Source: a phage. Taken from it: DNA of 64,000 nt. The notes below the pieces were generated by a model, which was not told where the DNA came from, did no database searches, and was given only the letters and a program-made list of their open reading frames with translations. Both the position numbers and the translations under genes were made by a program. Within the stretch, counting starts at the first letter, position 1. Each line of letters starts with the position of its first letter. The stretch lies in sequence record PZ386969.1. One strand, written 5' to 3'. Shown piece by piece: positions 1,289 to 39,752 of the stretch.

Positions 1289-1939
1289 TTATTCTCCAAA
1301 GTCGATCTTCATCTTGTCTGTTGCAAGTCCCTTCTCAAGAACATCTGCTAAAGCATTGTCGGTCTGTAGAGAAGAATCCTTGTACACGTCCGGTTCGTTC
1401 TCTTCGTCCAAGATGGACAGACGTTTGTCGATATCGTCGATCTCCGGAACGCCCGTATCGAAGTTTTCGTTGCCGTACTGGAACAACGTGCACGGTAGAG
1501 AGAACGTATACCATTTGCCAAATTGCATGAAGTCTTCATCGTTGTTCGGGTTGTTGACCTTGAAGATCTTGTTCGCCAGTGGTAGATAGATCAGGTCACC
1601 TTCCTGAGGTTGTTGTTCAAACCCAACACCGTTGCCTATCACCTCAGCAAATCGGCGGCGCGAGATAGAGAACGTCACTTCGTCTTGCAATTGGATACCC
1701 CCAAACTTCTCCCACATCTGGGTGTTGAAGCCCTGGTAATCCTGCATGTATGCTTCGATGTCGAACGCCTGGTCGAATCTGTGGTTAGCATCGTTGGTGA
1801 TAGGAAATTTTTCAACGATGGAACGGGGTATATACTTGATGTCTATCCCGCGCAACTCAATCATTTCCTGTACCAAATCTTCAATCAGCTTCTGTGTGCC
1901 TTGGTGATTGGTGGCGTTGAAATATTTAGAAGTGGCCAT
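1289..1939 (-). CDS. hypothetical structural protein (216 aa)
   Basis: ORF track; ATG start confirmed; late-promoter-like motif and ribosome-site hairpin directly upstream. Confidence 0.5.
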   Translation of the reverse strand: MATSKYFNATNHQGTQKLIEDLVQEMIELRGIDIKYIPRSIVEKFPITNDANHRFDQAFDIEAYMQDYQGFNTQMWEKFGGIQLQDEVTFSISRRRFAEVIGNGVGFEQQPQEGDLIYLPLANKIFKVNNPNNDEDFMQFGKWYTFSLPCTLFQYGNENFDTGVPEIDDIDKRLSILDEENEPDVYKDSSLQTDNALADVLEKGLATDKMKIDFGE

Positions 1940-1972
1940 ATCGATACCCTCAATTTTGAAGGTATTTAGTCG
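1940..1972 (-). promoter_or_regulatory. late-promoter-like CTAAATACC plus inverted copy overlapping the ribosome site (GAGGGTAT) of gene 1289..1939
   Basis: minus-strand reading CTAAATACCTTCAAAATTGAGGGTATCGAT-ATG; resembles T4 late promoter TATAAATA. Confidence 0.45.
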
Positions 1973-2212: not shown

Positions 2213-2240
2213 AGAAGGGCGGGTAATCCCGCCTTTCCTT
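2213..2240. terminator. bidirectional rho-independent terminator-like hairpin
   Basis: AAGGGCGGG-TAAT-CCCGCCTTT flanked by A-run and T-rich tail. Confidence 0.5.
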
Positions 2241-8740: not shown

Positions 8741-10657
8741 TTACATAACAACTGCGGCAGATATGTATCCTGAATCTTGATACGATCCAGAAAGGTCAAA
8801 AACTTCTAAGTTAAAAGAGTCAGGGGATGTACTTACGACATTAATTACTAATTTCCCTCCGCTAGTGGTATTGCCAACACTGCATAAAACAGCATAAGCA
8901 GAGGAGGGCATAGTATTAGATAGGTTGACGGTATATTTACCGGTCCCGGTTTTAGTTACAGTTGCTCCATCCGCATACACTGACGACCCCGAAATTCCAT
9001 TAAAATTGATCATTGCCCGTGTACATGCACTCGACCTTTTTGCGACGGTAGACCCAATAAATGCGTATTCTTGGGCCTTGTTAATATAAATCTTATTAAC
9101 AGAAGTGTCAGGTACTTGTAAGACGTTATCTATAACAACATTACAGGCTGTTGCTCCAGATACGGTAGAGCATCTATCTATCTCATAATTGTCGATATTA
9201 ATAGCCCTTACAAAACCTATACCCCCAAATGCTGACCAGTTTTGTTTAACAAGAACACCGGAAATACCGGACAGGAAAATAAGATCGCCTGTCGTATCTT
9301 TGCTAAACGTGTTGTTGGTTATTGAAACAGAAGAAGAACGCGGTGAGTGACTATCATCTGCAACATATACCCTGGCTAAAGAAGAAGCAGTATTCTCTTC
9401 AAAGTAGTTACCATCTACCAGTAACTGCTGTGCACCCCCGGCGACAACACCTACGTCATAGCCCGTGTTTGCTTCAAATAGAGAGTCTCTGACTATGAAA
9501 TTTCGTACACTACTTGCAGTACCTGAGTCTCCGATAAGAACACCGTTAACACCATCAAAGAAAGTACAATTATCAACTTTAACTACGTTGATATCTACTT
9601 TTGACGTTTTTACACCATTTGCACATTTAGCGAAATAGCATGAAGTTAGCTCAGCCACCCCGGAAAAATAGTCTGGGGCGTCGTAATGTAAATAAACACC
9701 GTACCGGGCGTTTCTGACAACGCAATCTTGAAGTTTTAGGTACCAAGCCCCTCCGAAATCAAAACCATCAGACGATGAGTCCTGAATATCCAAGAAAAGT
9801 CCAGAAATCTTAGCTCCTATCGCACCACCTTGAACCCGAATGGCGGGTGACGCTAACCCGGTAAACTTAATTACTGAACCTGTTGTTTGGTCATTAACAT
9901 GTCCAAAACTATTACCAACAATACATAGACTATCAGTGGCAGTTATGATTAAAGTAGAGCTTATAAGATAAATACCATCCGGTATGTATAAACTCTTTTT
10001 CGAATCTATTGCTGCCTGAAACGCGGCGGTATCATCGGTCACACCGTCGCCAACAGCCCCGAAGTCCTTGACTGACACCAGGTCTTTATTTTTATCATGT
10101 AGTGTTCGCTTAATGGAGTTGGCCAGAGGTGACTTAAATCCGACCAGACCAGCGCCATCATCAGATGCAAGATTGATTCTCAAGGCTGCATCACCAACAC
10201 TAACCCACTTGTCTAACCCAGTACCTCCAGCACTTTCAGGAGTTGAGCCAGAAGAAACGGTTTTAGGTAACTCACCATCCCAGCGATACTTACCTGTTGT
10301 ATGGGTAAGCAATTCATTTTTAACATTAAGTGTAGCACCATTGTCAAACGACCCAGACAATGTAACGTATTCTTCACGAGATACGGCTAATTCCCCAAGA
10401 TCTACGGAACCAGCTGAATGTACAAGTACGGCATTAGTACCAAGACTTACAGCAGTCACCCCCGAACCAATGTCAGCAGGCAAGGAATAGGCACGCTGAG
10501 TAGCCTTATCATAAATTACTTTGTAACCACCTAAGTCTACACCTACAGCAAAGTAGACTACCTCATTCTGTTTAACACCAAACTTACGGGCAATGGCTTG
10601 CTTATTGGTAAGAATACCAGTAGAGCCTTTACCACCTTGTGAGAACATTTCGTTCAT
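8741..10657 (-). CDS. tailspike protein (638 aa), conserved N-terminal region plus beta-helix-like body
   Basis: N-terminal block VVYFAVG..GYKVIYDK..VLVHSAGSVDLG..REEYVTL..RWDG shared with the two neighbouring genes; repetitive C-terminal body; AAGAGG ribosome site. Confidence 0.75.
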   Translation of the reverse strand: MNEMFSQGGKGSTGILTNKQAIARKFGVKQNEVVYFAVGVDLGGYKVIYDKATQRAYSLPADIGSGVTAVSLGTNAVLVHSAGSVDLGELAVSREEYVTLSGSFDNGATLNVKNELLTHTTGKYRWDGELPKTVSSGSTPESAGGTGLDKWVSVGDAALRINLASDDGAGLVGFKSPLANSIKRTLHDKNKDLVSVKDFGAVGDGVTDDTAAFQAAIDSKKSLYIPDGIYLISSTLIITATDSLCIVGNSFGHVNDQTTGSVIKFTGLASPAIRVQGGAIGAKISGLFLDIQDSSSDGFDFGGAWYLKLQDCVVRNARYGVYLHYDAPDYFSGVAELTSCYFAKCANGVKTSKVDINVVKVDNCTFFDGVNGVLIGDSGTASSVRNFIVRDSLFEANTGYDVGVVAGGAQQLLVDGNYFEENTASSLARVYVADDSHSPRSSSVSITNNTFSKDTTGDLIFLSGISGVLVKQNWSAFGGIGFVRAINIDNYEIDRCSTVSGATACNVVIDNVLQVPDTSVNKIYINKAQEYAFIGSTVAKRSSACTRAMINFNGISGSSVYADGATVTKTGTGKYTVNLSNTMPSSAYAVLCSVGNTTSGGKLVINVVSTSPDSFNLEVFDLSGSYQDSGYISAAVVM

Positions 10658-10678
10658 AACGACCTCTTTGTTTTTCTA

Positions 10679-10701
10679 AGAAACCCCGCCGAAGCGGGGT
10701 T
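10679..10701 (-). terminator. GC hairpin with CTTCGG-type loop between tailspike genes
   Basis: AACCCCGC-TTCG-GCGGGGTT on minus strand after stop of gene 10706..13210. Confidence 0.5.
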
Positions 10702-10705
10702 AGTT

Positions 10706-13210
10706 TTACGAGTAAGCACTCTCGAACTTACAAAACCAGGTTGCTCCTTCATCAGTTGTTGACAACCTAAAAACTTGTGTTCCAGCTGCTGTCAAAGATG
10801 GGGTATTGCTTGCTAATTTAACATTTGCACCAAATGTTATTGTTTTAGATGTTGTTGAACAGACAGCCAAAAGAACCTCAACATAACCAATTAGTGTATT
10901 TGTTAATACTGCTGGAGTTATTGTTACATCTCCTGTAACTGTAGCTGCGATGTAAGATGCGTCTGAAAAGTCAGGCGCATAACTTGCTGTTGGCGTCTCG
11001 AACTTTGGATTTCTTACCAATACAGGAACTCCAACATTTTTCCTGAAAATTGTACTATTGCAAACCATATCATACTCTATACCAACAAAATTCTTAGCTG
11101 CAAGTATGTTAGTAAATGTCTGGTCCGCAGAGTAAATATGAGTTATCAGCCTTGCCACCCATGCTGGTGAGTTTGAGTTTTCACACTCAATGAATGAACA
11201 GTTGATACTACCAACGGCGAATGGCATTAGTGATGCCGTATATGAAGATAGCCCTGCGTCATTAAACGCATTCATATTCACAAACGTCTGGCATTGAGAG
11301 AACGTATTACCGGTGGCTCCACCATCAATAAAAAAGCCAATCCCGCCGTTAATATAACCATCTACAGGATCTAAATTAGCTTTCGCGTAGTCCCATTTTG
11401 ATGGAGAATCTGCAAAACATTGATTGAAGGAATTGTTTATTGAGTTCTGTACAACAAAGCAGCATTTCATCCTTGAGTTCTGGTCAGTGACTGTATCGTC
11501 ATACATGCCCCAGTTGTGCACCTTACTAATTCTGTTATTGCCACCACCACGAACCCAGGTACCAAATCGGAAATAACGACCTTCACCCATACTAACCTGA
11601 TGATCGCTACCTTCAACAATGTGGGCTGTGCTGAGTGGATTAGTTGGTTTTAATACACCAACAGCATAAAACTTCAATAGGTGCACACCCATACCGCCAG
11701 CAATATGGATGCCATGACCATCAATATTGGCTACGTAAATGCCATCTAACTTGTTGGCATAACCATCAGATATTTTAAATCCATTAACAGTTTTTGCACG
11801 GGCATCAATTAAAAGATTGCTAATGTGCCCAGCGTATTGATTACCTGTACCTTTATCACACTTTACAGCATAACCAGATGAGTCTGCTATGAAGTCATCT
11901 GTCAGGTATACCCCACCGAAACCAGCATCAATGCTAACATCTCCGTGAATGTGTAGTGTCGTACTGATAGGATATTTCTTCCCATTCAGCCTGATAACTT
12001 TGCTTACAGTGTTAGGTTGTAGCCAGTCAGGATGGTTAGCAGCACTACTTGGTGCATGTTCTAAACCTGTTAAAGCTGCCGCAGCATCAATCGCATCCTG
12101 TAATGATGGATACATATCCGGGTTGACATTTATAATTTTCTTAAGCGCATTGCCAACAGTACCAGTTTCGTAATCAATTGACTTATCAAAACCTGAAAAA
12201 CCTGCTCCTGTAGGTTTAGCCAATTCTGACTTCAATGAAGCATCACCAACACTAACCCATGCACCTGTTCCAACACCACCGGTTGATGTAGTGGTTGAGT
12301 CAGCGGGGACAACTTTAGGTAGTGCACCCTCCCACGTATAGCACTGACCACCAGCGATGTGCCAAACAGCATCCGTTTCACTATTAACTGTTGCACCTTC
12401 TTCAAAGCTACCAGCAACGAGAGATAAACCTGCTTCTGCAAGTAAACGTCTCCACAATTCTCTGGTATTCGACTCTTGATGAGTAGGTAACAAAGTAACA
12501 GTAATATTACCTGGATTGTACGTTAACTGCCCATTACTAACGGATGAGATGTATATGTTAGAGGGTAATGAAGGTAACCCATATGACTTCTGCTCACTAA
12601 CAGAGTAGACAATCTTTTTACCATTCAATAATTGCGTAGTGTCAGTGCTAAGAATTACTTCACTGTCCTTAACGTTAGTTGCACGAGCGATTTCTTGAAT
12701 ACTTCGGTCAAACAACGGACTGATATTCGGTTGTTTAACAGACATTTCAGCGACTACCCAAACGCCTGCAGTCAGCGCAGTTTGTAAAGACACTTTCCCT
12801 GTCGTGCTGTCATAGGAATATTCAATTTCGGGTGTTTTGTACTCACCACCGATATAAAGAGATTGGACTCCATAATATGTGTAATCAGGAGTGAACTCGG
12901 TTTCACCTCCTATAGCCTGAAACTTATAGATTCGAACCCCGGTTTTATAATCTTCTGGAGACAGAATCTTATCAAACAGACAGAACACAACGTCACCTTT
13001 GGATAATGCGCGTCCGAGATTCAACGTATTTCCATCGATTTCAAAGTTGTCTAACGGAACTTGCATGCCACCGTTGATTGTGACTATACCAGTGACAGGG
13101 TAGAAAGGGAGGGAGATAAACTTCTCTCCACCCGTTGCTGTGTAAGTGTATGGAATCTGGTGCGGAGCTGTTACGACCGCTCCAAAGATGCTCTCGACGT
13201 TTCTGGTCAT
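10706..13210 (-). CDS. tailspike protein (~834 aa from second ATG)
   Basis: shares N-terminal conserved block with neighbours; second ATG at 13210 has GGGG ribosome site while ATG at 13225 lies inside the hairpin. Confidence 0.75.
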   Translation of the reverse strand: MTRNVESIFGAVVTAPHQIPYTYTATGGEKFISLPFYPVTGIVTINGGMQVPLDNFEIDGNTLNLGRALSKGDVVFCLFDKILSPEDYKTGVRIYKFQAIGGETEFTPDYTYYGVQSLYIGGEYKTPEIEYSYDSTTGKVSLQTALTAGVWVVAEMSVKQPNISPLFDRSIQEIARATNVKDSEVILSTDTTQLLNGKKIVYSVSEQKSYGLPSLPSNIYISSVSNGQLTYNPGNITVTLLPTHQESNTRELWRRLLAEAGLSLVAGSFEEGATVNSETDAVWHIAGGQCYTWEGALPKVVPADSTTTSTGGVGTGAWVSVGDASLKSELAKPTGAGFSGFDKSIDYETGTVGNALKKIINVNPDMYPSLQDAIDAAAALTGLEHAPSSAANHPDWLQPNTVSKVIRLNGKKYPISTTLHIHGDVSIDAGFGGVYLTDDFIADSSGYAVKCDKGTGNQYAGHISNLLIDARAKTVNGFKISDGYANKLDGIYVANIDGHGIHIAGGMGVHLLKFYAVGVLKPTNPLSTAHIVEGSDHQVSMGEGRYFRFGTWVRGGGNNRISKVHNWGMYDDTVTDQNSRMKCCFVVQNSINNSFNQCFADSPSKWDYAKANLDPVDGYINGGIGFFIDGGATGNTFSQCQTFVNMNAFNDAGLSSYTASLMPFAVGSINCSFIECENSNSPAWVARLITHIYSADQTFTNILAAKNFVGIEYDMVCNSTIFRKNVGVPVLVRNPKFETPTASYAPDFSDASYIAATVTGDVTITPAVLTNTLIGYVEVLLAVCSTTSKTITFGANVKLASNTPSLTAAGTQVFRLSTTDEGATWFCKFESAYS

Positions 13211-13215
13211 TTGAA

Positions 13216-13255
13216 GATACCCCATAGAGGATTTGCCAATATGGGGTATTTAGTC
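13216..13255 (-). promoter_or_regulatory. late-promoter-like CTAAATACCCC with inverted copy GGGGTAT covering the translation start
   Basis: perfect 10-bp inverted repeat ATACCCCATA/TATGGGGTAT. Confidence 0.5.
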
Positions 13256-13290
13256 TGAACTAATAAATTTATGAACAAAGGTATAACAAG

Positions 13291-13310
13291 AACCCCGCCA
13301 AAGCGGGGTT
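13291..13310. terminator. GC-rich hairpin
   Basis: AACCCCGC-CAAA-GCGGGGTT. Confidence 0.4.
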
Positions 13311-13318
13311 TGACACTC

Positions 13319-13492
13319 CTATTCCAGACACATTTCAAAATGTATACCAACATCACCCCACCCATCATAAACAGACGACCCCGATATTCTTGATCCATCT
13401 ATGTTGGCGAAATAAAAATACGCTGACCCATCATTGATATCACCTATAAAGTTCTTATACCCGTTTGATGACAACCCGAGAGAGAGCCAACA
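13319..13492 (-). pseudogene. possible relic of a tailspike C-terminal segment (no start codon)
   Basis: minus-strand frame gives ...ANIDGSRISGSSVYDGWG...; the heptapeptide ISGSSVY also occurs near the C-terminus of tailspike 8741..10657 (NFNGISGSSVYADG). Confidence 0.3.
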
Positions 13493-13568: not shown

Positions 13569-16500
13569 CTACCAGTAATACCAATCACCTTTTTTACTTC
13601 TGACTAGAATAGAACAATCGGTAACAGCTACTGTAGACACCCCACCAATCCTTATCTCATACAGTTTACTAGGCAATCTTTTCTTAGTTAGAGAGACTTT
13701 AAAATCTGTACCAGTTACAGTGATATATTCCGTCCCATCCTCACTATCTATCTGTAAATCTAGGCCGCTGGGACTTGCTGGGAGCTTAACATAAAGCTGT
13801 TGTTCTGCTGTACTACCAGCAAAATGACCGATAACTGTAGATGTCCACTCACTTAAAGTCAACCCTGAACGCACAAAGTCTACATTGAGCGGTTCCTTAA
13901 TAAGTGCAGCAGGTGCATTGTAATTATGCCCGTTAAGTACATAGTAGTTGCTGCTACCAACCTCTACTGTGTCTGCTGTGCAGTAAGAGTGGAAGGTTTT
14001 TGCGTTATCAAAGCGATATAGACTTCTGATTAGCACACGCTCTTGATTGCTTCTGGTTAAAATGCCACAACCTGCGGAAAGGTGGAGTGTGGAGATGGTA
14101 AGCGTATGACTTTCACTGTTGGCCTTGGATGACAGCAATGACACCTTGGGTTCACCCTCTTGAGTAAAGTCTTTACTATTACCCTCACAGTACATGACCC
14201 CAATGTCCCACGCAGCAGGGTCCATTGTTACTACCCCAGCACCTGCCGTATTCTCAGAGCAAATCACACCAACACTGGTAGACAAACCACGACCTAAGAT
14301 AATACCAGCACCTATTGTATATTTACTCGCATCATCCGTGATTGGGTCATAACCTAGTCCCGTAGACTTATCAGTACCCCATGCACTAATGTGAGGGAAG
14401 TGTGTAGCATTCACATAGGTATCCCCTTGCTCACCTTCTGTTGAATAACCTAATGCCATACCCCTTGCACAGTTGTTTGCATGGAGAGTGCCCATTTGAA
14501 AATACCAGCAAGCAAACATTACAATGCCATATCTATTAGCATTATATGCATAGATGCTACCCATCTCAGATTCTGCACACAGAAGACGTGCATAAAAACC
14601 ATATGATGCAATATCTGCACAGTCTACGTTTAAGCTACCGATTAAGCGTAATCCTCGCACTTGATTCTCTGTATTAGCCACATCCACTGTTGCTGTACCG
14701 ACAGGAAATTTACTAACGCGTACAACAGCTTTTAACGTAGGCCATACGGAGCCAATTGCTTTAATTGTTGCCCCGTTTAGATTCCCACGTAAGTAAGAAG
14801 GTATAACAACCTCATCCGTTACGTGGTAGGTAGAATTCCCATTCAGATTTAATGTACCTGTGGCTATAGCTAGTTTTATAGCAGGTAAACAGTCAAAACT
14901 AGGGTCATTGGGGATTGCACCAAAATTCTCAGGTGAGTGTTCATTAAACCCTGTTAGCTTACCAACGTTAGTCCAAGAAGAGTCTGGGGCAGCACCATAA
15001 CTAACAGGTAGTGTCCCATTGTACTTGTACCAGAACCCATCTGAATGTAGAACAACCTGATATTTATCGGATACATTCCCACCATCACCGAATACACCGC
15101 TCTTTTTGTAAAGAGACAGACTACCGGAATCAATAAGAGAAGAACCTTTCCAGGAGGCTAAACGTTGCTCTAATCCAACAACACCAACTACAAGCCATGC
15201 CCCTGGACCAACACCTCCTGTACCCAATGGGGTAGATTCTGGAGGGACTACTTTGGGTACAGAACCATCCCAACGATATTTAATATCGTTACTCACAACC
15301 AACTCATTCTTGGTATTAACAGTTACACCTGTATCGAATGAACCAGGTAAGGTCACATACTCCTCACGAGATACGGCTAATGCGCCCAGATCAACACTAC
15401 CAGCAGAATGCACAAGTACAGCCGAAGAACTAAGGCTGACTGCCGTGGTTCCAGTCGGTAGCTCTGGAATAAAATATGATCTCTGTGTTACTTTATCATA
15501 GATAACTTTATACCCGCTTAGCACAGCACCAACACTAAAATAAACGACCTCTGTATCTTTAACATTGGTTACACGAGCCACTTCCCGCAAAGTATGATCA
15601 ATTTGATTATAGATGTTTGGTGTTCCATTGATAATTACAACAACTTCATCTTCTGGTTCCAGTTCTTGCGCCAGAGTGATTTTACTGGTTAATGGATCGA
15701 ATGTGAATCCCAGATTTTTATACTGACGACTTCCGTTTATATCAATGGCCGGAACATCATCAACAACGACGTCCAACGTGATTTCGGTTTCACCGCCAAT
15801 CGCTGAACCCCCATTATAGACCCAAGTAATCGTAGAAGAACTAGAACCACCGCCATTACCCAATTGAATAGGAGTATATTCAATCACCTGAAGTTCTGTG
15901 CTGGCTGGCAAAGAAGGACTGAAAGTGATTACATTCCCATCTAGTGAATATTTGGATTCCGCAAGGCGTTTTCCGTCAGCATACACGTCCACGATTGTTG
16001 GTGGAGTATTGAGAGTGACAGTACTTGTTTCAGACGCCAAAATTTTTGTAAAGATTTCACGACTGTAGACACGGCCTTGGCCAAGACCGACGCCGGATGT
16101 AATAATCCAACCTTGTTCAGGTCCAGACCAAGTGAACGTTGCTGATACGTTATCAGTTGTTATAGCCATGTCTTCAGTGGAGCCATACAAATTATTTCCA
16201 GAAGGAGACACGGTCAATGGGTAAGTGGCAAATTTCCCATAAGCATCACAAATAGTAACGGAATCCCCAATACGCGTAGGGGAAGGGAGAACCACTGTAG
16301 ATGCCCCTGTGGTATTATTAATGAGATAGCCTCGCCCTTCAGTGAGCGTTGCCGTAGAGGCATGCGGAAGGACTTCCCAGCGGATGCCACCGCCACCCAG
16401 CGGCAACCAACCACCATTTTCGTAATAACCTTCGAATTCGTCGGAGTCGGCATTGTAGCGAACGGAAGACGGGAGTCCTGCGCTGGCATTACCCTCGGGT

Positions 16501-16622
16501 AAAGTCAGGACAGCATCTGGTCCATGCTCAATCGTACCCGTGTTGAGGACACCAGCCAAAGTAGACTGCTCTTCAGCCGCCAGACCGAGAGGGAAAACAG
16601 GCTGTGTTGGTTTATTAGCCAT
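13569..16622 (-). CDS. tailspike protein (~1017 aa from second ATG)
   Basis: N-terminal conserved block (VVYFSVG..GYKVIYDK..VLVHSAGSVDLG..); long repetitive body; start chosen at ATG 16622 after GGGGTATTTGAA. Confidence 0.75.
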   Translation of the reverse strand: MANKPTQPVFPLGLAAEEQSTLAGVLNTGTIEHGPDAVLTLPEGNASAGLPSSVRYNADSDEFEGYYENGGWLPLGGGGIRWEVLPHASTATLTEGRGYLINNTTGASTVVLPSPTRIGDSVTICDAYGKFATYPLTVSPSGNNLYGSTEDMAITTDNVSATFTWSGPEQGWIITSGVGLGQGRVYSREIFTKILASETSTVTLNTPPTIVDVYADGKRLAESKYSLDGNVITFSPSLPASTELQVIEYTPIQLGNGGGSSSSTITWVYNGGSAIGGETEITLDVVVDDVPAIDINGSRQYKNLGFTFDPLTSKITLAQELEPEDEVVVIINGTPNIYNQIDHTLREVARVTNVKDTEVVYFSVGAVLSGYKVIYDKVTQRSYFIPELPTGTTAVSLSSSAVLVHSAGSVDLGALAVSREEYVTLPGSFDTGVTVNTKNELVVSNDIKYRWDGSVPKVVPPESTPLGTGGVGPGAWLVVGVVGLEQRLASWKGSSLIDSGSLSLYKKSGVFGDGGNVSDKYQVVLHSDGFWYKYNGTLPVSYGAAPDSSWTNVGKLTGFNEHSPENFGAIPNDPSFDCLPAIKLAIATGTLNLNGNSTYHVTDEVVIPSYLRGNLNGATIKAIGSVWPTLKAVVRVSKFPVGTATVDVANTENQVRGLRLIGSLNVDCADIASYGFYARLLCAESEMGSIYAYNANRYGIVMFACWYFQMGTLHANNCARGMALGYSTEGEQGDTYVNATHFPHISAWGTDKSTGLGYDPITDDASKYTIGAGIILGRGLSTSVGVICSENTAGAGVVTMDPAAWDIGVMYCEGNSKDFTQEGEPKVSLLSSKANSESHTLTISTLHLSAGCGILTRSNQERVLIRSLYRFDNAKTFHSYCTADTVEVGSSNYYVLNGHNYNAPAALIKEPLNVDFVRSGLTLSEWTSTVIGHFAGSTAEQQLYVKLPASPSGLDLQIDSEDGTEYITVTGTDFKVSLTKKRLPSKLYEIRIGGVSTVAVTDCSILVRSKKGDWYYW

Positions 16623-16624
16623 TT

Positions 16625-16666
16625 CAAATACCCCTAAATGTGTTCGTTTCATCTAGGGGTATTTAG
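16625..16666 (-). promoter_or_regulatory. late-promoter-like CTAAATACCCC with inverted copy immediately before the ATG
   Basis: perfect 11-bp inverted repeat AAATACCCCTA/TAGGGGTATTT. Confidence 0.5.
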
Positions 16667-16668
16667 TT

Positions 16669-17859
16669 TTAGAAAGAAGCTACAATAGAATAATCGACCG
16701 AACAAGCAGTTGTTGTATTCGCATTAACAACGGAAACTCTCAATTTACCACCCACCACAGCCCCTGTGAACGTCACTGTACCGCTCGTACTTTTCTGAAC
16801 CAACAACTCCGACTTGATAGTTCCGTCGCGAGTTATGGTTACTCGATATGTATCAACAACGTTACCTGTTCCCCATTGCGCGGTCACCAGTATTTGACAA
16901 AGGTTCACCAAATCAAAATCTGGAAGAGCCGTCGTCCCAGAAGCCGAAACCGTGTAAGAAGACAAATTCGTTTTGGTACGATAAACGGCGTTCCCTAAAC
17001 TATTGTCGACAGAGGTCATCTTGGCATTATACGTTGATACGCTAACTTTATCACTGGAAAGAGAACTGATGCTGTTATCCAGAGATGACATCTTCGTGTT
17101 GTACGTGCTAACCTCGACTTTATTACCCAGAGACGTATTGATATTGGAGATACTCAAATCCAATGACGCCATCTTCGTGTTGTAAGTCGAGGTGTTAACT
17201 TTCCCGTTTAACGATGTGTTGATGTTATTGATTCGGGACTCTAGACTCAGCATATCTGCGTCATACGCTGTCGTTGTCACATATCCATTAAATCGGTTAT
17301 CTGCAAACAACGCATCAAAAAATGCAGTCATTGTCCAATAACGCGCTCCAGAATCTGTTTGTACTGGAATTGAAGTTGGCATCGTTGATCCGGTATACGC
17401 AGACAATCTGGTGAAATCCAAATTGAATTTGTAATATCCGGATGTCAACAACTCCCCAGCCAAACCAGAACCAGGTGGGGTAGTGTCTTCACTGACACCA
17501 TGCTTTCTCAACATGCTCAGGTTAACACCATCTGTCGCTATCGTAGGCTCATCCACGATAGACAGTTTCTTCCCAGCCGGAACAGTCAGGCCGCCGTTGG
17601 CGGTCAACAACGCAACAAAAGTCTTGCTCCCATTGATCGTTTGTTCACCACCGTCGGTGCGGATCACTTTGTTTTTCAGTGTGTCGTAGATATTATCCAC
17701 AGAACGCTTCAGCTCGTATGTCAGATGAGCTGAAGGAGGGAACAACGGATCATCAACAGCGAAATCGTTGACAACATCAGTCTTGCTTATTTTATCGTCA
17801 ACAGAAGAAAGGATTGCATCAATCTGCTGACCTGTGTATCGACTCAGAAAATCGGCCAT
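16669..17859 (-). CDS. tail fibre protein with three tandem ~21-aa repeats (396 aa)
   Basis: repeat units INNINTSLNGKVNTSTYNTKMASLD / ISNINTSLGNKVEVSTYNTKMSSLD / SDKVSVSTYNAKMTSVD; sits between baseplate and tailspike genes. Confidence 0.6.
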   Translation of the reverse strand: MADFLSRYTGQQIDAILSSVDDKISKTDVVNDFAVDDPLFPPSAHLTYELKRSVDNIYDTLKNKVIRTDGGEQTINGSKTFVALLTANGGLTVPAGKKLSIVDEPTIATDGVNLSMLRKHGVSEDTTPPGSGLAGELLTSGYYKFNLDFTRLSAYTGSTMPTSIPVQTDSGARYWTMTAFFDALFADNRFNGYVTTTAYDADMLSLESRINNINTSLNGKVNTSTYNTKMASLDLSISNINTSLGNKVEVSTYNTKMSSLDNSISSLSSDKVSVSTYNAKMTSVDNSLGNAVYRTKTNLSSYTVSASGTTALPDFDLVNLCQILVTAQWGTGNVVDTYRVTITRDGTIKSELLVQKSTSGTVTFTGAVVGGKLRVSVVNANTTTACSVDYSIVASF

Positions 17860-17860
17860 T

Positions 17861-18715
17861 TTAACTCCTTGAACTTTCTAGGAATACAGTAAACCCAGCA
17901 GGATGGAAATGCTGACGGAAGACGCGATCAAACACACCTTCAAAATCAGATACGTTGCCAGGAACTCTTATCACATACGTGAATTCATCATAGTAGTAAT
18001 CGTCACGCATTCCTGTCGCGCCGTCACATTCAAAGTTGTCATCCAGGCCACCAATTTCTTCCTTGGGATAATACACACTCACTGGGCAACCAAAGTAAAT
18101 CCAGAAGAACAATTCAATCGCTTTCTTCGTCCCGCGAATGCGATAAATGTGTTTAAGTAACTTCAACCAGCGTACATGGTCCAGTGTCCGGCGTTCAGTT
18201 CCCTCGACATACACAGAGAGAGTGTCTCCGTCTGAAGTCACCAAACTGTCCGAACCAACTGGCACAAACTTCCCGAACTCCAGGAAGGACTTATCAACCG
18301 TTCTCTGGAATCCAAAATCAGCATACCAATCGTCGATGCGTTCGTTCTTGTCTTCCATTGAGATTAATGGCCGACCGTCCACGTCCAGCAAATCTTCGAA
18401 GTCTAGCGCCATCATGTTCTCAAACGTGCGCGTCAGGAACTTGTCTTCCAAGAAGTCTTTGGCCTCAGTACCTGGCGTCTTGCGCTTCTTGATGTCAATC
18501 AACTGCTCAATAGGAGACTGATCCGTATTTGGGTTCACCCAGCCACCAGTGTCTGCCAGATACGCCAAGATCTCCTCTTCGGTGAATCCCTGCTGGCGGT
18601 ACAACCAGTTGAAGAACGTATCCATAAACTCGATGAATACTGGGAATTCATTCTGGTAAAACAATGGGGTTTCATATTTCACCCCATTGTGTCCGTTATT
18701 AAGATCTTTGGACAT
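17861..18715 (-). CDS. baseplate protein, putative (284 aa)
   Basis: position between a large J-like gene and the fibre gene matches the common myovirus J-I-fibre order; no motif confirmation. Confidence 0.35.
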   Translation of the reverse strand: MSKDLNNGHNGVKYETPLFYQNEFPVFIEFMDTFFNWLYRQQGFTEEEILAYLADTGGWVNPNTDQSPIEQLIDIKKRKTPGTEAKDFLEDKFLTRTFENMMALDFEDLLDVDGRPLISMEDKNERIDDWYADFGFQRTVDKSFLEFGKFVPVGSDSLVTSDGDTLSVYVEGTERRTLDHVRWLKLLKHIYRIRGTKKAIELFFWIYFGCPVSVYYPKEEIGGLDDNFECDGATGMRDDYYYDEFTYVIRVPGNVSDFEGVFDRVFRQHFHPAGFTVFLESSRS

Positions 18716-28305: not shown

Positions 28306-28397
28306 GTATTTCCTTCTCTTCAGATTGTTGTTTGTTCGTACTACAATTAGAAGTATACGCCAGTTATTGAAGAAGTAAACTTTATTCAATAAATATT

Positions 28398-32304: not shown

Positions 32305-32315
32305 TTCAATAAACC

Positions 32316-32340
32316 AAAGGGGGATATAATTCCCCCTGTT
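32316..32340 (+). terminator. hairpin after polymerase gene, preceded by TTGATTCAATAAA
   Basis: AAAGGGGGA-TATAAT-TCCCCCTGTT. Confidence 0.5.
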
Positions 32341-34904: not shown

Positions 34905-35278
34905 AAATTCAAATCCCTCGCGATGCTGTGGCTGTTGCGATTGACTACACCGGAAACGCCAAGCACATTACTGCCGTGCGCCTGATTCCTGAAAAGAACT
35001 GCGTCATCCCTCAGTTCCAGCTGAATGCCAATCCGTCGTCCAAAGACTTCGGTAAGTGGTTGCAGGCTGCTCCGTTCCGTACCCAGACGAATGCCCAGAT
35101 GTTCATCTCGGGTAAGACCCACACTGTAGCCCGTCTTTGGTTTGTGACCGCCGACCGCCGCTTCATCGATATGTGGGAACGTCCGATGGGGTTCGTGAAG
35201 CCGGAAGATATTCAGCTGGCTCCTGAGCCTGAAGCTGTGGCTCCTGAAGAGGAAGCGAAAGATGCATCATTTATCTAA
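34901..35278 (+). CDS. hypothetical protein (125 aa)
   Basis: ATG 34901 with AGGAACC upstream; track ORF 34766 trimmed. Confidence 0.45.
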   Translation: MKIQIPRDAVAVAIDYTGNAKHITAVRLIPEKNCVIPQFQLNANPSSKDFGKWLQAAPFRTQTNAQMFISGKTHTVARLWFVTADRRFIDMWERPMGFVKPEDIQLAPEPEAVAPEEEAKDASFI

Positions 35279-36500
35279 AATGCCGACGGGTTATACGCCT
35301 CCGGCTGAATGGAAGTACCCGATTGACCTGGCTGTTGATTATCGCAAGCCTGAGAATCGCATGTACCTGCTCAAGGCTTGGGTGGAGGCGCTGTCCTACA
35401 CAGAAGAGCACAACCAGCAGATGCGTCTGATGGACTATGCGATCGAAGTCACTGAAGGCATCAGCCTCGAACAGAAAGTCGAGCGCAAGATCTGGATGGC
35501 ATTCCTGTGGGGTTGTTGCTATAACGCCGTCGGACCGTGGACGATCTACAGTGAGTTCCCTGTGCCGCCTCAGTCTAAGGAAGAGATGCAGCGCTTCTCT
35601 GATTGGTATAATCTGAACTTTGAACGCATGCGATTCGATACCGACTGTCGCTACCGCAAGTCCAAGATGATTCCGTGTGTTCAGTCCTATATTGACTGGC
35701 TGGCTGGCCGTACTCAATATGACGCTTTCCGTGGGATGTTGGTGTGCATCGATAAGACAGAACAATTCACCCAGCTGTGGGACACGGCGATGTCCTGGAA
35801 ATACTTCGGTCGCCTGAGCGCCTGGAACTTCCTGGAAGCCCTGAACATGGTCTTCGGGAACGAATACACCATTGACGTCCCTGGCTTCATGCTGCGTGAT
35901 CGTGATGGAAGCGAGTCCAACCGTAATGGCGCGGCGTTCTTGTCCAACCGTGACGATTGGGTGACTAAACACGGGAAGAAAAAGATCAACGGTTGTCCTA
36001 TCACGGATGAAGAGTGTGACATCCTTGAGGCCGACCTTGAGCAGGCGTTCCAGGATTGTGTGGCTGAGTTCGGGCACCTGACGTTCATCAACCGCCTGAA
36101 CTTTGAAACCTCCGGTGCTTGTTGGCTGAAGAAATTCTTCCGACTGAAGAATACCCGTTACATCGGGTGGGACGCAGAGCGTACCTGGGATGAGATAGAC
36201 TACATGGAACGCGTCTGGCCTGAATACTCCTGCGCAGCGCTCTGGGAAGCCCGTTCGCTCTGGCTGCCAGATACCCTGTTATGTGAAAAGGCTCCTGCAG
36301 GGCACGTTCCAGGCGTCCAGAAGTGGAAGATGCCTGTATTCTTTGAGACTGGTGTTCCTCTGCATATCTGGCACCTGCAAAAGGGTACGCGCTGGGAACC
36401 ATCCGAGGTATGTACGAACCTGAAGATGCCTGTGCGCAAGGTTGAGGACAAGCAGCCGCGCAAACATAGCGTCAACCTCATGACACTCTTGAAACGCTGA
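35262..36500 (+). CDS. hypothetical protein (412 aa); possible DNA-modification enzyme by context
   Basis: ORF track; GAGGAAG ribosome site; sits with kinase, HAD and PLP genes beside the polymerase; no motif confirmed. Confidence 0.3.
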   Translation: MHHLSKMPTGYTPPAEWKYPIDLAVDYRKPENRMYLLKAWVEALSYTEEHNQQMRLMDYAIEVTEGISLEQKVERKIWMAFLWGCCYNAVGPWTIYSEFPVPPQSKEEMQRFSDWYNLNFERMRFDTDCRYRKSKMIPCVQSYIDWLAGRTQYDAFRGMLVCIDKTEQFTQLWDTAMSWKYFGRLSAWNFLEALNMVFGNEYTIDVPGFMLRDRDGSESNRNGAAFLSNRDDWVTKHGKKKINGCPITDEECDILEADLEQAFQDCVAEFGHLTFINRLNFETSGACWLKKFFRLKNTRYIGWDAERTWDEIDYMERVWPEYSCAALWEARSLWLPDTLLCEKAPAGHVPGVQKWKMPVFFETGVPLHIWHLQKGTRWEPSEVCTNLKMPVRKVEDKQPRKHSVNLMTLLKR

Positions 36501-36536
36501 TATAAATATCCTCGCCTATAAAGTGAGGATATTATC

Positions 36537-36704
36537 ATGTTACAAGATCTGTTGGTGTACGCGCTTCCTGGCGTTGTTGTCGGTTTCGTAGCTGGTGCTC
36601 TGGTCTTCCGTAAACACGCGCAAGACGGTGAAGTGATTGTTCAGAAGGGTAAGGACATCCTGGAACAAATCGAAGCCAAGCTGGAAGAGCTGAAGAAAAA
36701 GTAA
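36537..36704 (+). CDS. small membrane protein (55 aa), not in ORF track
   Basis: ATG with GAGGA upstream; hydrophobic core LVYALPGVVVGFVAGALVF. Confidence 0.4.
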   Translation: MLQDLLVYALPGVVVGFVAGALVFRKHAQDGEVIVQKGKDILEQIEAKLEELKKK

Positions 36705-36721: not shown

Positions 36722-36772
36722 TTCTTCAATAAAGGGGAATGGGTTAATATTAGCCCGTTCCCCTTTCTTTTT
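36722..36772 (+). terminator. terminator hairpin preceded by TTCTTCAATAAA
   Basis: AAAGGGGAATGGG-TTAATATTAG-CCCGTTCCCCTTT followed by CTTTTT. Confidence 0.55.
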
Positions 36773-39705: not shown

Positions 39706-39752
39706 GTTCTTCAATAAAAGGGGATAGGGTATTATTGCTCTATCCCTTTTTC
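39706..39752 (+). terminator. terminator hairpin preceded by TTCTTCAATAAA
   Basis: AAAAGGGGATAGGG-TATTATTGCT-CTATCCCTTTTT. Confidence 0.55.

Follow-up and report, generated by a model that had tools for sequence, protein, structure and literature searches.

Hairpins linking presumed late promoters to ribosome sites in an Agtrevirus-related phage and other Ackermannviridae

Genes and hairpins of the window

We analyzed RNA hairpins that connect a presumed late promoter, CTAAATA, with the ribosome site of the gene that follows it in a 64,000-nucleotide (nt) stretch of phage DNA (sequence record PZ386969.1; the whole stretch is called the window). The closest matches of the window are the Agtrevirus phages (family Ackermannviridae) LHE287, YX22, and vB_CECAV_050, with 96-98% identity; Kuttervirus, Limestonevirus, and Taipeivirus are more distant matches. 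Homologous regions of ~44 kb were compared from eight phages (AG3, CBA120, Vi01, JA15, 0507-KN2-1, IME250, phiEa2809, and a Vibrio relative), together with additional IMG/VR loci for gp14, the ADP-ribosyltransferase (ART), and gp6. Genes were named from annotated relatives and from open reading frames (ORFs):

1289-1939, minus strand: gp14 neck/head-closure protein
10706-13210, minus strand: tailspike of the TSP2 type (second tailspike gene, MTRNVE...)
13569-16622, minus strand: tailspike of the TSP4 type (first tailspike gene)
16669-17859, minus strand: baseplate/tailspike connector
18699-20477, minus strand: gp6 baseplate wedge
25514-26707, plus strand: pyridoxal phosphate (PLP)-dependent enzyme
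26748-27212, plus strand: 154-amino-acid (aa) protein with an ART-PolyVal ADP-ribosyltransferase domain (PF18760, E = 2.7e-10)
36537-36704, plus strand: 55-aa protein with one transmembrane segment (hydrophobic N-terminal helix and charged tail), an ORF after TATAAATA and a strong hairpin

A preliminary description of this DNA had placed a late-promoter motif and its inverted copy around the ribosome sites of the genes starting at 1939, 13210, and 16622 (minus) and 26748 (plus). We confirmed all four sites at these coordinates; in each, the CTAAATA motif is followed by an inverted copy over the Shine-Dalgarno (SD) sequence or AUG. A scan of every TAAATA added two sites, at gp6 (20477) and at the 55-aa membrane protein (36537). 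The elements of the six sites are as follows:

16660..16666, minus strand: CTAAATA, presumed late promoter core of the TSP4-type gene, 2 nt past the stop codon of the baseplate gene at 16669-17859
16650..16665, minus strand: 5′ arm UAAAUACCCCUAGAUG, TSP4-type gene (perfect core, 16654-16664)
16625..16640, minus strand: 3′ arm CAUUUAGGGGUAUUUG, TSP4-type gene; SD GGGGU at 16630-16634, AUG at 16620-16622
13247..13253, minus strand: CTAAATA, presumed late promoter core of the TSP2-type gene (motif scan)
13240..13249, minus strand: 5′ arm AUACCCCAUA, TSP2-type gene (inverted-repeat search, folding)
13217..13226, minus strand: 3′ arm UAUGGGGUAU, TSP2-type gene; covers the SD, AUG at 13208-13210
26714..26720, plus strand: CTAAATA, presumed late promoter core of the ART-PolyVal gene, 7 nt past the stop codon of the PLP-enzyme gene at 25514-26707
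26715..26728, plus strand: 5′ arm UAAAUACCCCAUAC, ART-PolyVal gene (folding)
26735..26748, plus strand: 3′ arm GUGUGGGGUAUUUA, ART-PolyVal gene; covers the SD and the A of the AUG (26748-26750)
1963..1969, minus strand: CTAAATA, presumed late promoter core of the gp14 gene (motif scan)
1957..1965, minus strand: 5′ arm AUACCUUCA, gp14 gene (folding)
1944..1952, minus strand: 3′ arm UGAGGGUAU, gp14 gene; SD GAGGGU, one U·G pair, AUG at 1937-1939
20518..20524, minus strand: CTAAATA, presumed late promoter core of the gp6 gene (motif scan)
20512..20518, minus strand: 5′ arm AUCUUCA, gp6 gene (folding)
20482..20488, minus strand: 3′ arm UGGAGAU, gp6 gene; SD GGAG, AUG at 20475-20477
36501..36508, plus strand: T4-type box TATAAATA, directly after the stop codon of the 412-aa ORF at 35262-36500
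36505..36515, plus strand: 5′ arm AAUAUCCUCGC, gene of the 55-aa protein (inverted-repeat search, folding)
36523..36533, plus strand: 3′ arm GUGAGGAUAUU, gene of the 55-aa protein; covers the SD GAGGA, AUG at 36537-36539

At all six genes, minimum-free-energy (MFE) hairpins link the promoter flank to the SD, with folding energies of -10.2 to -21.0 kcal/mol and z scores of -2.7 to -8.1. At 16622, AAATACCCCTA pairs with TAGGGGTATTT over 11 perfect base pairs (16654-16664 with 16626-16636), and the stem extends to 16 bp with two G·U pairs (-21.0 kcal/mol; z, -8.1). The stem at 26748, TAAATACCCCA with TGGGGTATTTA, likewise has 11 perfect base pairs and extends to 14 bp with one G·U pair (26715-26728 with 26735-26748; -20.7 kcal/mol; z, -5.8). 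Neither of the other two stems extends: ATACCCCATA and TATGGGGTAT at 13210 form 10 perfect base pairs (-16.3 kcal/mol; z, -5.2), and ATACCTTCA and TGAGGGTAT at 1939 form 9 bp that include one U·G pair (-10.2 kcal/mol; z, -4.5). The gp6 hairpin folds at -11.6 kcal/mol (z, -2.7) and that at 36537 at -14.0 kcal/mol (z, -6.0); the TATAAATA of the latter is the only T4-type box of that kind in the window.

Hence, the perfect stems of 8-11 bp in the preliminary description hold at 13210, 16622, and 26748, and the 9-bp stem at 1939 departs from them by its G·U pair. The site at 1939 also departs in its 3′ arm, which is GAGGGTAT and not the GGGGTAT(T/C)T proposed for all four, and in its gene: reuse of the arrangement had been suggested for tailspikes and a PARP-like gene, which fits 16622 and 13210 (tailspikes) and 26748, and the gene at 1939 encodes the gp14 neck protein. 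The SD (GGGGU or GAGGGU) lies inside the 3′ arm at all four sites, and the arm ends 0-6 nt before the AUG or on it. On the minus strand, 26741-26749 reads ATAAATACCCC, since the 3′ arm there complements the whole TAAATA; this is a late-promoter-like box directed antisense into the PLP-enzyme gene.

"PARP-like" is a fair label for the gene at 26748, given its ART-PolyVal domain. The JA15 orthologue of this 154-aa protein is annotated "structural protein," and the protein may be an ADP-ribosyltransferase that is packaged in the manner of T4 Alt. The orthologue of the PLP enzyme in ViI is gp226, which belongs to the thymidine-hypermodification pathway. The 55-aa protein is a candidate small lysis or membrane protein; a terminator lies downstream of its gene, at 36731-36766.

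Pairing of promoter flanks with ribosome sites

A motif search for the late-promoter consensus, proposed in the preliminary description, found CTAAATA nine times in the window. Eight of the nine lie in sense orientation no more than 50 nt upstream of a start codon, and the ninth codes for a conserved gp14 peptide, MATSKYFN. The longer form CTAAATACC occurs five times, four of them as CTAAATACCCC. With loops of 3-22 nt allowed, 21 inverted repeats that pair perfectly over 9 bp or more were found in the window versus 3.9 expected; 4 of the 21 lie on TAAATA in the sense of the downstream gene, and most of the others are terminator-like. Against shuffled translation-initiation regions, the four originally described sites gave p values of 0.007, 5e-5, 1e-4, and 1e-4. 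A strong hairpin masking the start was present at 6 of the 8 genes with [CA]TAAATA no more than 60 nt upstream versus 9 of 65 others (Fisher p = 6e-4). Promoter flanks paired with their own ribosome sites with a score of 90.8, versus 64.0 ± 4.4 for noncognate combinations, and none of 20,000 of these reached the cognate value.

These data bear on the possibility that two constraints merely coincide, namely a promoter that needs a run of C and ribosome sites rich in G by chance. By its nature, ACCCC can pair with a GGGGU SD, and promoter and ribosome site would each constrain one arm. However, pairing goes beyond the SD on both sides (e.g., CTAG, CATA, and GTGT upstream of GGGG), flanks without C runs still match their own ribosome sites, cognate pairing is far above noncognate pairing, and CTAAATA sites that have no hairpin vary in their downstream sequence. 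We rejected coincidence, an extremely improbable explanation, on the excess of cognate pairing together with covariation in the tailspike/ART leaders and in gp6.

A second family motif, TTCAAT-N14-TATAAT (presumed early promoter), has 17 matches in the window at up to 2 mismatches versus 5.1 expected. Most of them have TTCAATAAA in common; examples are 20781-20806, 32305-32330, 28346-28371 (minus), and 39710-39735.

We compared the leaders across the family. The promoter and its inverted arm lie upstream of orthologous genes in Agtrevirus, Kuttervirus, Limestonevirus, Taipeivirus, and Nezavisimistyvirus, and the arrangement is shared by AG3, CBA120, Vi01, JA15, 0507-KN2-1, IME250, and phiEa2809. 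About 60% of candidate late promoters per compared region have a strong hairpin. The preliminary description had left it to related phages to decide whether the inverted arm is conserved; it is, and with covariation. Stems persist while loops vary in length and sequence (e.g., 9-16 nt at the TSP4 site). Among 25 distinct tailspike/ART leaders, 91.6% of cells were paired versus 37-58% with slid partners, and AU switches to UA at two pairs between classes. In the gp6 helix, 96.3% of cells were paired versus 32-61% with slid partners; in the pair that directly follows TAAATA, different genera have U-A, A-U, or G·U, and a U·G pair is replaced by C-G in Taipeivirus. Gene-specific arms were always matched (CCTTCA:TGAGGG, TCCTC:GAGGA, TCTTCA:TGGAGA, CTCTTT:AAGGAG, CCCCTAG:CTAGGGG, and CCCCATA:TATGGGG). 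Across 22 hairpins, the MFE stems have 21 G·U pairs on the sense strand, and the sense RNA of these hairpins folds better than the antisense RNA by 1.8 kcal/mol on average. Together, the sense-strand G·U pairs and the better folding of the sense strand indicate selection on mRNA rather than on DNA.

An element that acts as DNA would have to accommodate these observations; it could be an operator where a dimeric late-promoter regulator binds or a cruciform that affects how the promoter opens. The repeat does overlap the promoter, ATAAATACCCC is recreated on the opposite strand at 26748, and two divergent late promoters form a palindrome at 59777/59805. However, an arm spacing of 4-23 nt and gene-specific arm sequences do not fit one DNA-binding protein, in DNA the G·U positions would be mispaired, folding is better for the sense than for the antisense strand, and the 3′ arm always tracks the SD. 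We rejected an operator or cruciform, which we consider highly unlikely, on the variable spacing, the gene-specific arms, and the sense-strand G·U pairs. An origin of the inverted copy from divergent promoters was also rejected: it holds only at 59777/59805 and, formally, at 26748, and it fails at 16622 and 13210, where the opposite strand reads CAAATA and AGATAC.

The palindrome itself spans 50 bp between divergent late genes (59767-59818, TAAATAG...CTATTTA), which encode a 204-aa gp2-like DNA end protector (minus) and a 322-aa baseplate/tail-tube-type protein (plus). With a TAAATA box on each strand, at 59777/59805, the two late promoters appear to be inverted copies of each other.

Several other leaders were seen among relatives. 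The DNA polymerase gene of the Dickeya phage JA15 is split, and the ORF in its intron has CTAAATACTCTTT...AAGGAGTAT (L005 36018-36056; -9.9 kcal/mol). The IMG/VR relatives of gp14 with up to ~40% identity have no intergenic TAAATA and are uninformative, because the gene is translationally abutted to the upstream ORF. In two IMG/VR loci with gp14 55-59% identical (L029 and L030), TAAATA appears by eye to lie in the loop of a longer hairpin whose 3′ arm would have a GGGGG ribosome site; this would be a different geometry with the same predicted outcome. When viral contigs were scanned for the pattern CTAAATACCCC...GGGGTA, ordinary terminators from unrelated phages were among the matches, so the scan says nothing on distribution. 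Among the matches listed, a stem of ~12 bp formed by CTAAATACCCCCATCATNCATGGGGGTATTTTCT(T)ATG precedes another gene, outside the window's region, in close relatives (IMG/VR contigs L131, L163, and L211), so the device is used elsewhere in the genome too. In the tRNA region of relatives, CTAAATAAACCAGTTGTT-caata-AACAACTGGTG forms a conserved 10-bp hairpin before a small ORF (L002 27081, L003 27592, L004 27507, L005 26464, L006 28619, and L009 26567); none was seen in the window. Rfam 15, searched with the window at the gathering score, gave no family match to the hairpins and returned only four tRNAs, the cluster of four genes at 23445-24415 on the plus strand.

Proposed gating of translation and genomic context

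The hairpins could act in cis, gating translation according to where the transcript began. CTAAATA would then be a gp55-type late promoter, equivalent to TATAAATA in T4; the 5-10 nt after it would serve as the 5′ arm, and the gene's own SD region, sometimes with the AUG, as the 3′ arm. RNA entering from upstream, whether early or middle read-through, a terminator escapee, or a long late polycistronic RNA, would hold both arms, fold at -10 to -21 kcal/mol, and hide the ribosome site. RNA begun at the proximal late promoter, ~6-8 nt after TAAATA, would come without the 5′ arm and have a short open leader.

The geometry of the sites is consistent with this scheme: [CA]TAAATA forms or adjoins the 5′ arm at every hairpin site, and a purine lies 6-7 nt after TAAATA at nearly all sites. 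Leaders truncated at +6 to +8 after TAAATA fold at only -2.9 to -8.4 kcal/mol. In T4, an 8-bp late-promoter box precedes the start site by about one helical turn, and AT-rich sequence comes just after the box (PMC2988020). With CTAAATA aligned to TATAAATA, T4 geometry places the start ~6-8 nt after the box. Homologues of gp55, gp33, and gp45 have been reported for CBA120, ViI, and AG3 (PMC3184105, PMC3121705). We infer promoter activity, start-site position, and repression of translation on long RNAs, the first two by analogy with T4. Gating of the type known for T4 gene e is in our judgment the best reading of the hairpins, and a reasonably probable one.

CTAAATAcCcc has been given as a conserved regulatory motif of Viunalikevirus/Ackermannviridae (Adriaenssens et al. 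2012, as cited in PMC7283392). Our comparison suggests that its C run is best read as an anti-SD arm for GGGGU ribosome sites and not as a general need of the promoter, because the tail of CTAAATA differs where the ribosome site is not of the GGGG type, every tail is matched to the ribosome site of its own gene, and T4 favors AT-rich sequence at this position. No paper in the literature searched describes these hairpins; the 2012 genus paper may mention them.

Whether RNA would enter the sites from upstream depends on their context. At 26748, the PLP-type DNA-hypermodification gene lies directly upstream, with no terminator between in a terminator scan. At 36537, the layout is the same, with the gene adjoining the upstream 412-aa ORF. 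Longer codirectional transcripts running into both sites are plausible. The promoter at 16622 starts 2 nt past the stop codon of the late baseplate gene, and the genes upstream are late. The genes at 1939, 13210, and 20477 are preceded at 50-250 nt by a terminator-like hairpin, which comes before the promoter. The terminator scan found:

13291..13310, minus strand: intrinsic-terminator-like hairpin upstream of the 13253 promoter, part of a repeated cassette
2218..2233, minus strand: terminator-like hairpin after gp13, upstream of the 1969 promoter
20576-20597: terminator upstream of the gp6 hairpin and separate from it

The preliminary description had invoked the mechanism of T4 gene e throughout. 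Its structural part stands, with the promoter in the 5′ arm, the 3′ arm over the SD or AUG, and a start that would remove the 5′ arm. The context is clearly that of gene e only at 26748, a late gene (virion-type ADP-ribosyltransferase) behind an earlier one.

Several observations count against gating of this type. At the tailspike, neck, and gp6 genes, the only obvious codirectional transcription upstream is late or behind a terminator, so a hairpin at the tailspike and neck genes would shield them from late RNA or from RNA that has passed a terminator and not from early transcripts; the selective benefit of a translation block at the tailspike, neck, and gp6 genes is correspondingly less obvious. 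The CCCC run follows the box where T4 late promoters are AT-rich and might weaken the promoter. Two CTAAATA sites that lie before genes, at 27209 and 8480, gave no significant hairpin on folding. The first of these is an internal negative example:

27209..27215, plus strand: CTAAATA(CCCCC), the fifth exact CTAAATACC, with no promoter-to-ribosome-site hairpin

In phiEa2809, the orthologous site does have a hairpin, of 12 bp. A third tailspike gene (start, 10657) has neither a promoter CTAAATA nor a hairpin at the ribosome site, and it would hence depend on terminator read-through. Strict two-sided compensatory changes are few, because the promoter constrains the 5′ arm and the ribosome site constrains the 3′ arm. 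Finally, the literature searched holds no transcript 5′ ends, transcript mapping, or expression data for Ackermannviridae. Just upstream of the third tailspike gene (8741-10657, minus), a terminator-like hairpin, aaccccgcttcggcggggttt, lies in the region 10658-10705.

The hairpins might instead be elements of RNA ends or processing that stabilize or define upstream 3′ ends, as weak terminators or barriers to exonucleases, or that are cleaved to separate cistrons, with masking of the ribosome site being incidental. They do lie at cistron boundaries, three adjoin an upstream stop codon (16666, 26714, and 36501), and U-rich spacers such as GGGGUAUUUU follow some 3′ arms. However, none was called in the terminator scan, no U-tract is conserved after the stem (UAUCUUC, UAUUAAC, UCAUCAA, and UAAAGUC), and the loops, mostly 9-17 nt, are atypical for terminators, the real ones being separate and upstream (13291-13310, 2218-2233, and 20576-20597). 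An RNase III site comprises about two helical turns (roughly 20 bp) of double-stranded RNA, and the stems, at 9-16 bp, are short for this enzyme. We therefore rejected intrinsic terminators, on the terminator scans and the missing conserved U-tract, and RNase III sites, on stem length. A role in RNA ends, which is unlikely overall, would also leave unexplained why the 3′ arm is always the SD or AUG of the next gene.

The same stop codons raise the question of translational coupling. A hairpin could close the ribosome site on a polycistronic RNA until a ribosome finishing the upstream ORF melts it, so that synthesis of the tailspike or ART would be linked to that of the upstream product. At 16666, 26714, and 36501, the preceding ORF stops 0-8 nt before the promoter core; at the TSP4 site, this distance is 1-3 nt in all genera. 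However, a terminating ribosome reaches only ~6-9 nt beyond the stop codon (footprint and helicase reach) and would thereby open the outer A/U pairs and not the CCCC:GGGG core, and no ORF adjoins the sites at 1969, 13253, and 20524 on the upstream side. Since the geometry lets only outer pairs open, we rejected coupling, which seems very doubtful as an explanation.

Gating of the gene e type may extend to how tailspike genes are organized. In vB_CECAV_050, a cassette of ~75 nt (terminator, spacer cttgttatacctttgttcataaatttattagttcag, CTAAATACCCCATATTGG, and hairpin) is repeated before TSP2 and TSP3 (L001 13760-13900 and 15985-16130); the window, without TSP3, has one copy (13200-13320), consistent with recombination between cassettes adding or removing the gene. 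A self-contained cassette of this kind would consist of terminator, promoter, translational lock, ribosome site, and conserved N-terminal anchor, and its output would be set by its own promoter only. We propose, tentatively, that the family motif is a late promoter fused to an anti-SD arm, that it is used systematically (at ~60% of late promoters and at those of the examined tailspike genes that have a promoter), and that it makes doubly insulated cassettes that let tailspike genes be swapped, gained, or lost without disturbing their neighbors; this wider proposal is possible but far from assured.

These repeats could also mean that the element is in essence a mobile or recombinogenic intergenic cassette for the exchange, gain, and loss of tailspikes, like the promoter stem-loop cassettes in hyperplastic regions of T4-type phages. 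Besides the CTAAATACCCCATATTGG cassette, which is found twice in vB_CECAV_050 and once in the window without TSP3, the known exchange of tailspike genes (PMC8432352) counts in favor of this idea. However, the same logic with unrelated arms recurs at gp14, gp6, the ADP-ribosyltransferase, the 55-aa protein, and the intron ORF; recombination needs direct repeats and not an inverted arm over the SD; and covariation with tolerance of G·U indicates RNA pairing. A recombination cassette in place of gating is thus quite unlikely; such a role may exist in addition to gating.

Significance and comparison with known systems

If gating operates as proposed, the conserved C tail of the family-defining motif CTAAATAcCcc would gain a mechanistic explanation, and the late-promoter consensus would become [C/A]TAAATA followed by a tail that differs from gene to gene. 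The T4 device of a promoter inside a lock would serve a sister lineage as a general design rule. The leader structure described here is conserved, covaries, and has no counterpart in Rfam. Work to change host range by re-engineering the tailspike genes of Ackermannviridae is under way (PMC11414711, PMC9965104). A transplanted tailspike gene that has the 3′ arm but not its own promoter, or that is read only from upstream, is predicted to stay silent.

The hairpins resemble Rho-independent terminators in being intergenic with a G+C core but differ in their long loops, their lack of a conserved U-tract, and a 3′ arm that is the SD of the next gene. PeSL cassettes of T4-type phages, said to have been described by Arbiol, Comeau, and Krisch in 2010, reportedly carry early sigma-70 promoters and have a proposed role in recombination. 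They likewise are repeated intergenic modules of promoter and stem-loop next to exchangeable genes; here, the promoter is instead late and the stem lies over the ribosome site. The 5′ arm of the hairpins matches the motif CTAAATAcCcc, which, as far as its description is cited, was reported as a conserved sequence; the pairing of the C tail with the ribosome site and the variable tails are undescribed in the literature searched.

The leader of the T4 lysozyme gene e, in which the late promoter lies inside a hairpin that sequesters the ribosome-binding site, was reportedly described by McPheeters et al. in 1986. There, as here, the late promoter box lies in or beside the 5′ strand of the hairpin and the SD/AUG lies in the 3′ strand. 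In T4, long transcripts fold and are poorly translated, whereas promoter-proximal late transcripts come without the 5′ strand (PMC3014915); the same behavior is only predicted here. The present sites differ in that the box is CTAAATA, with the arm following immediately and often as CCCC, in that ~60% of candidate late promoters in the region rather than a few genes have the hairpin, and in that upstream transcription at most sites is late or terminated, not early.

The promoter-in-hairpin arrangement has been documented for T4 e, soc, 49, I-TevI/II/III, and segB and for Aeh1 mobE (PMC3014915, PMC2988022). I-TevI/II/III, segB, mobE, and soc/49 have the same promoter-in-hairpin logic, there for late genes embedded in earlier transcription units, and the intron ORF in the JA15 DNA polymerase gene (L005:36018) is an exact analogue of I-TevI. 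In contrast to those genes, the targets here are mostly virion genes, namely tailspikes, neck, baseplate, and a packaged-type ADP-ribosyltransferase. We conclude that the mechanism itself is textbook T4, here with a proposed wider use at the level of the family and a useful reinterpretation of the motif.

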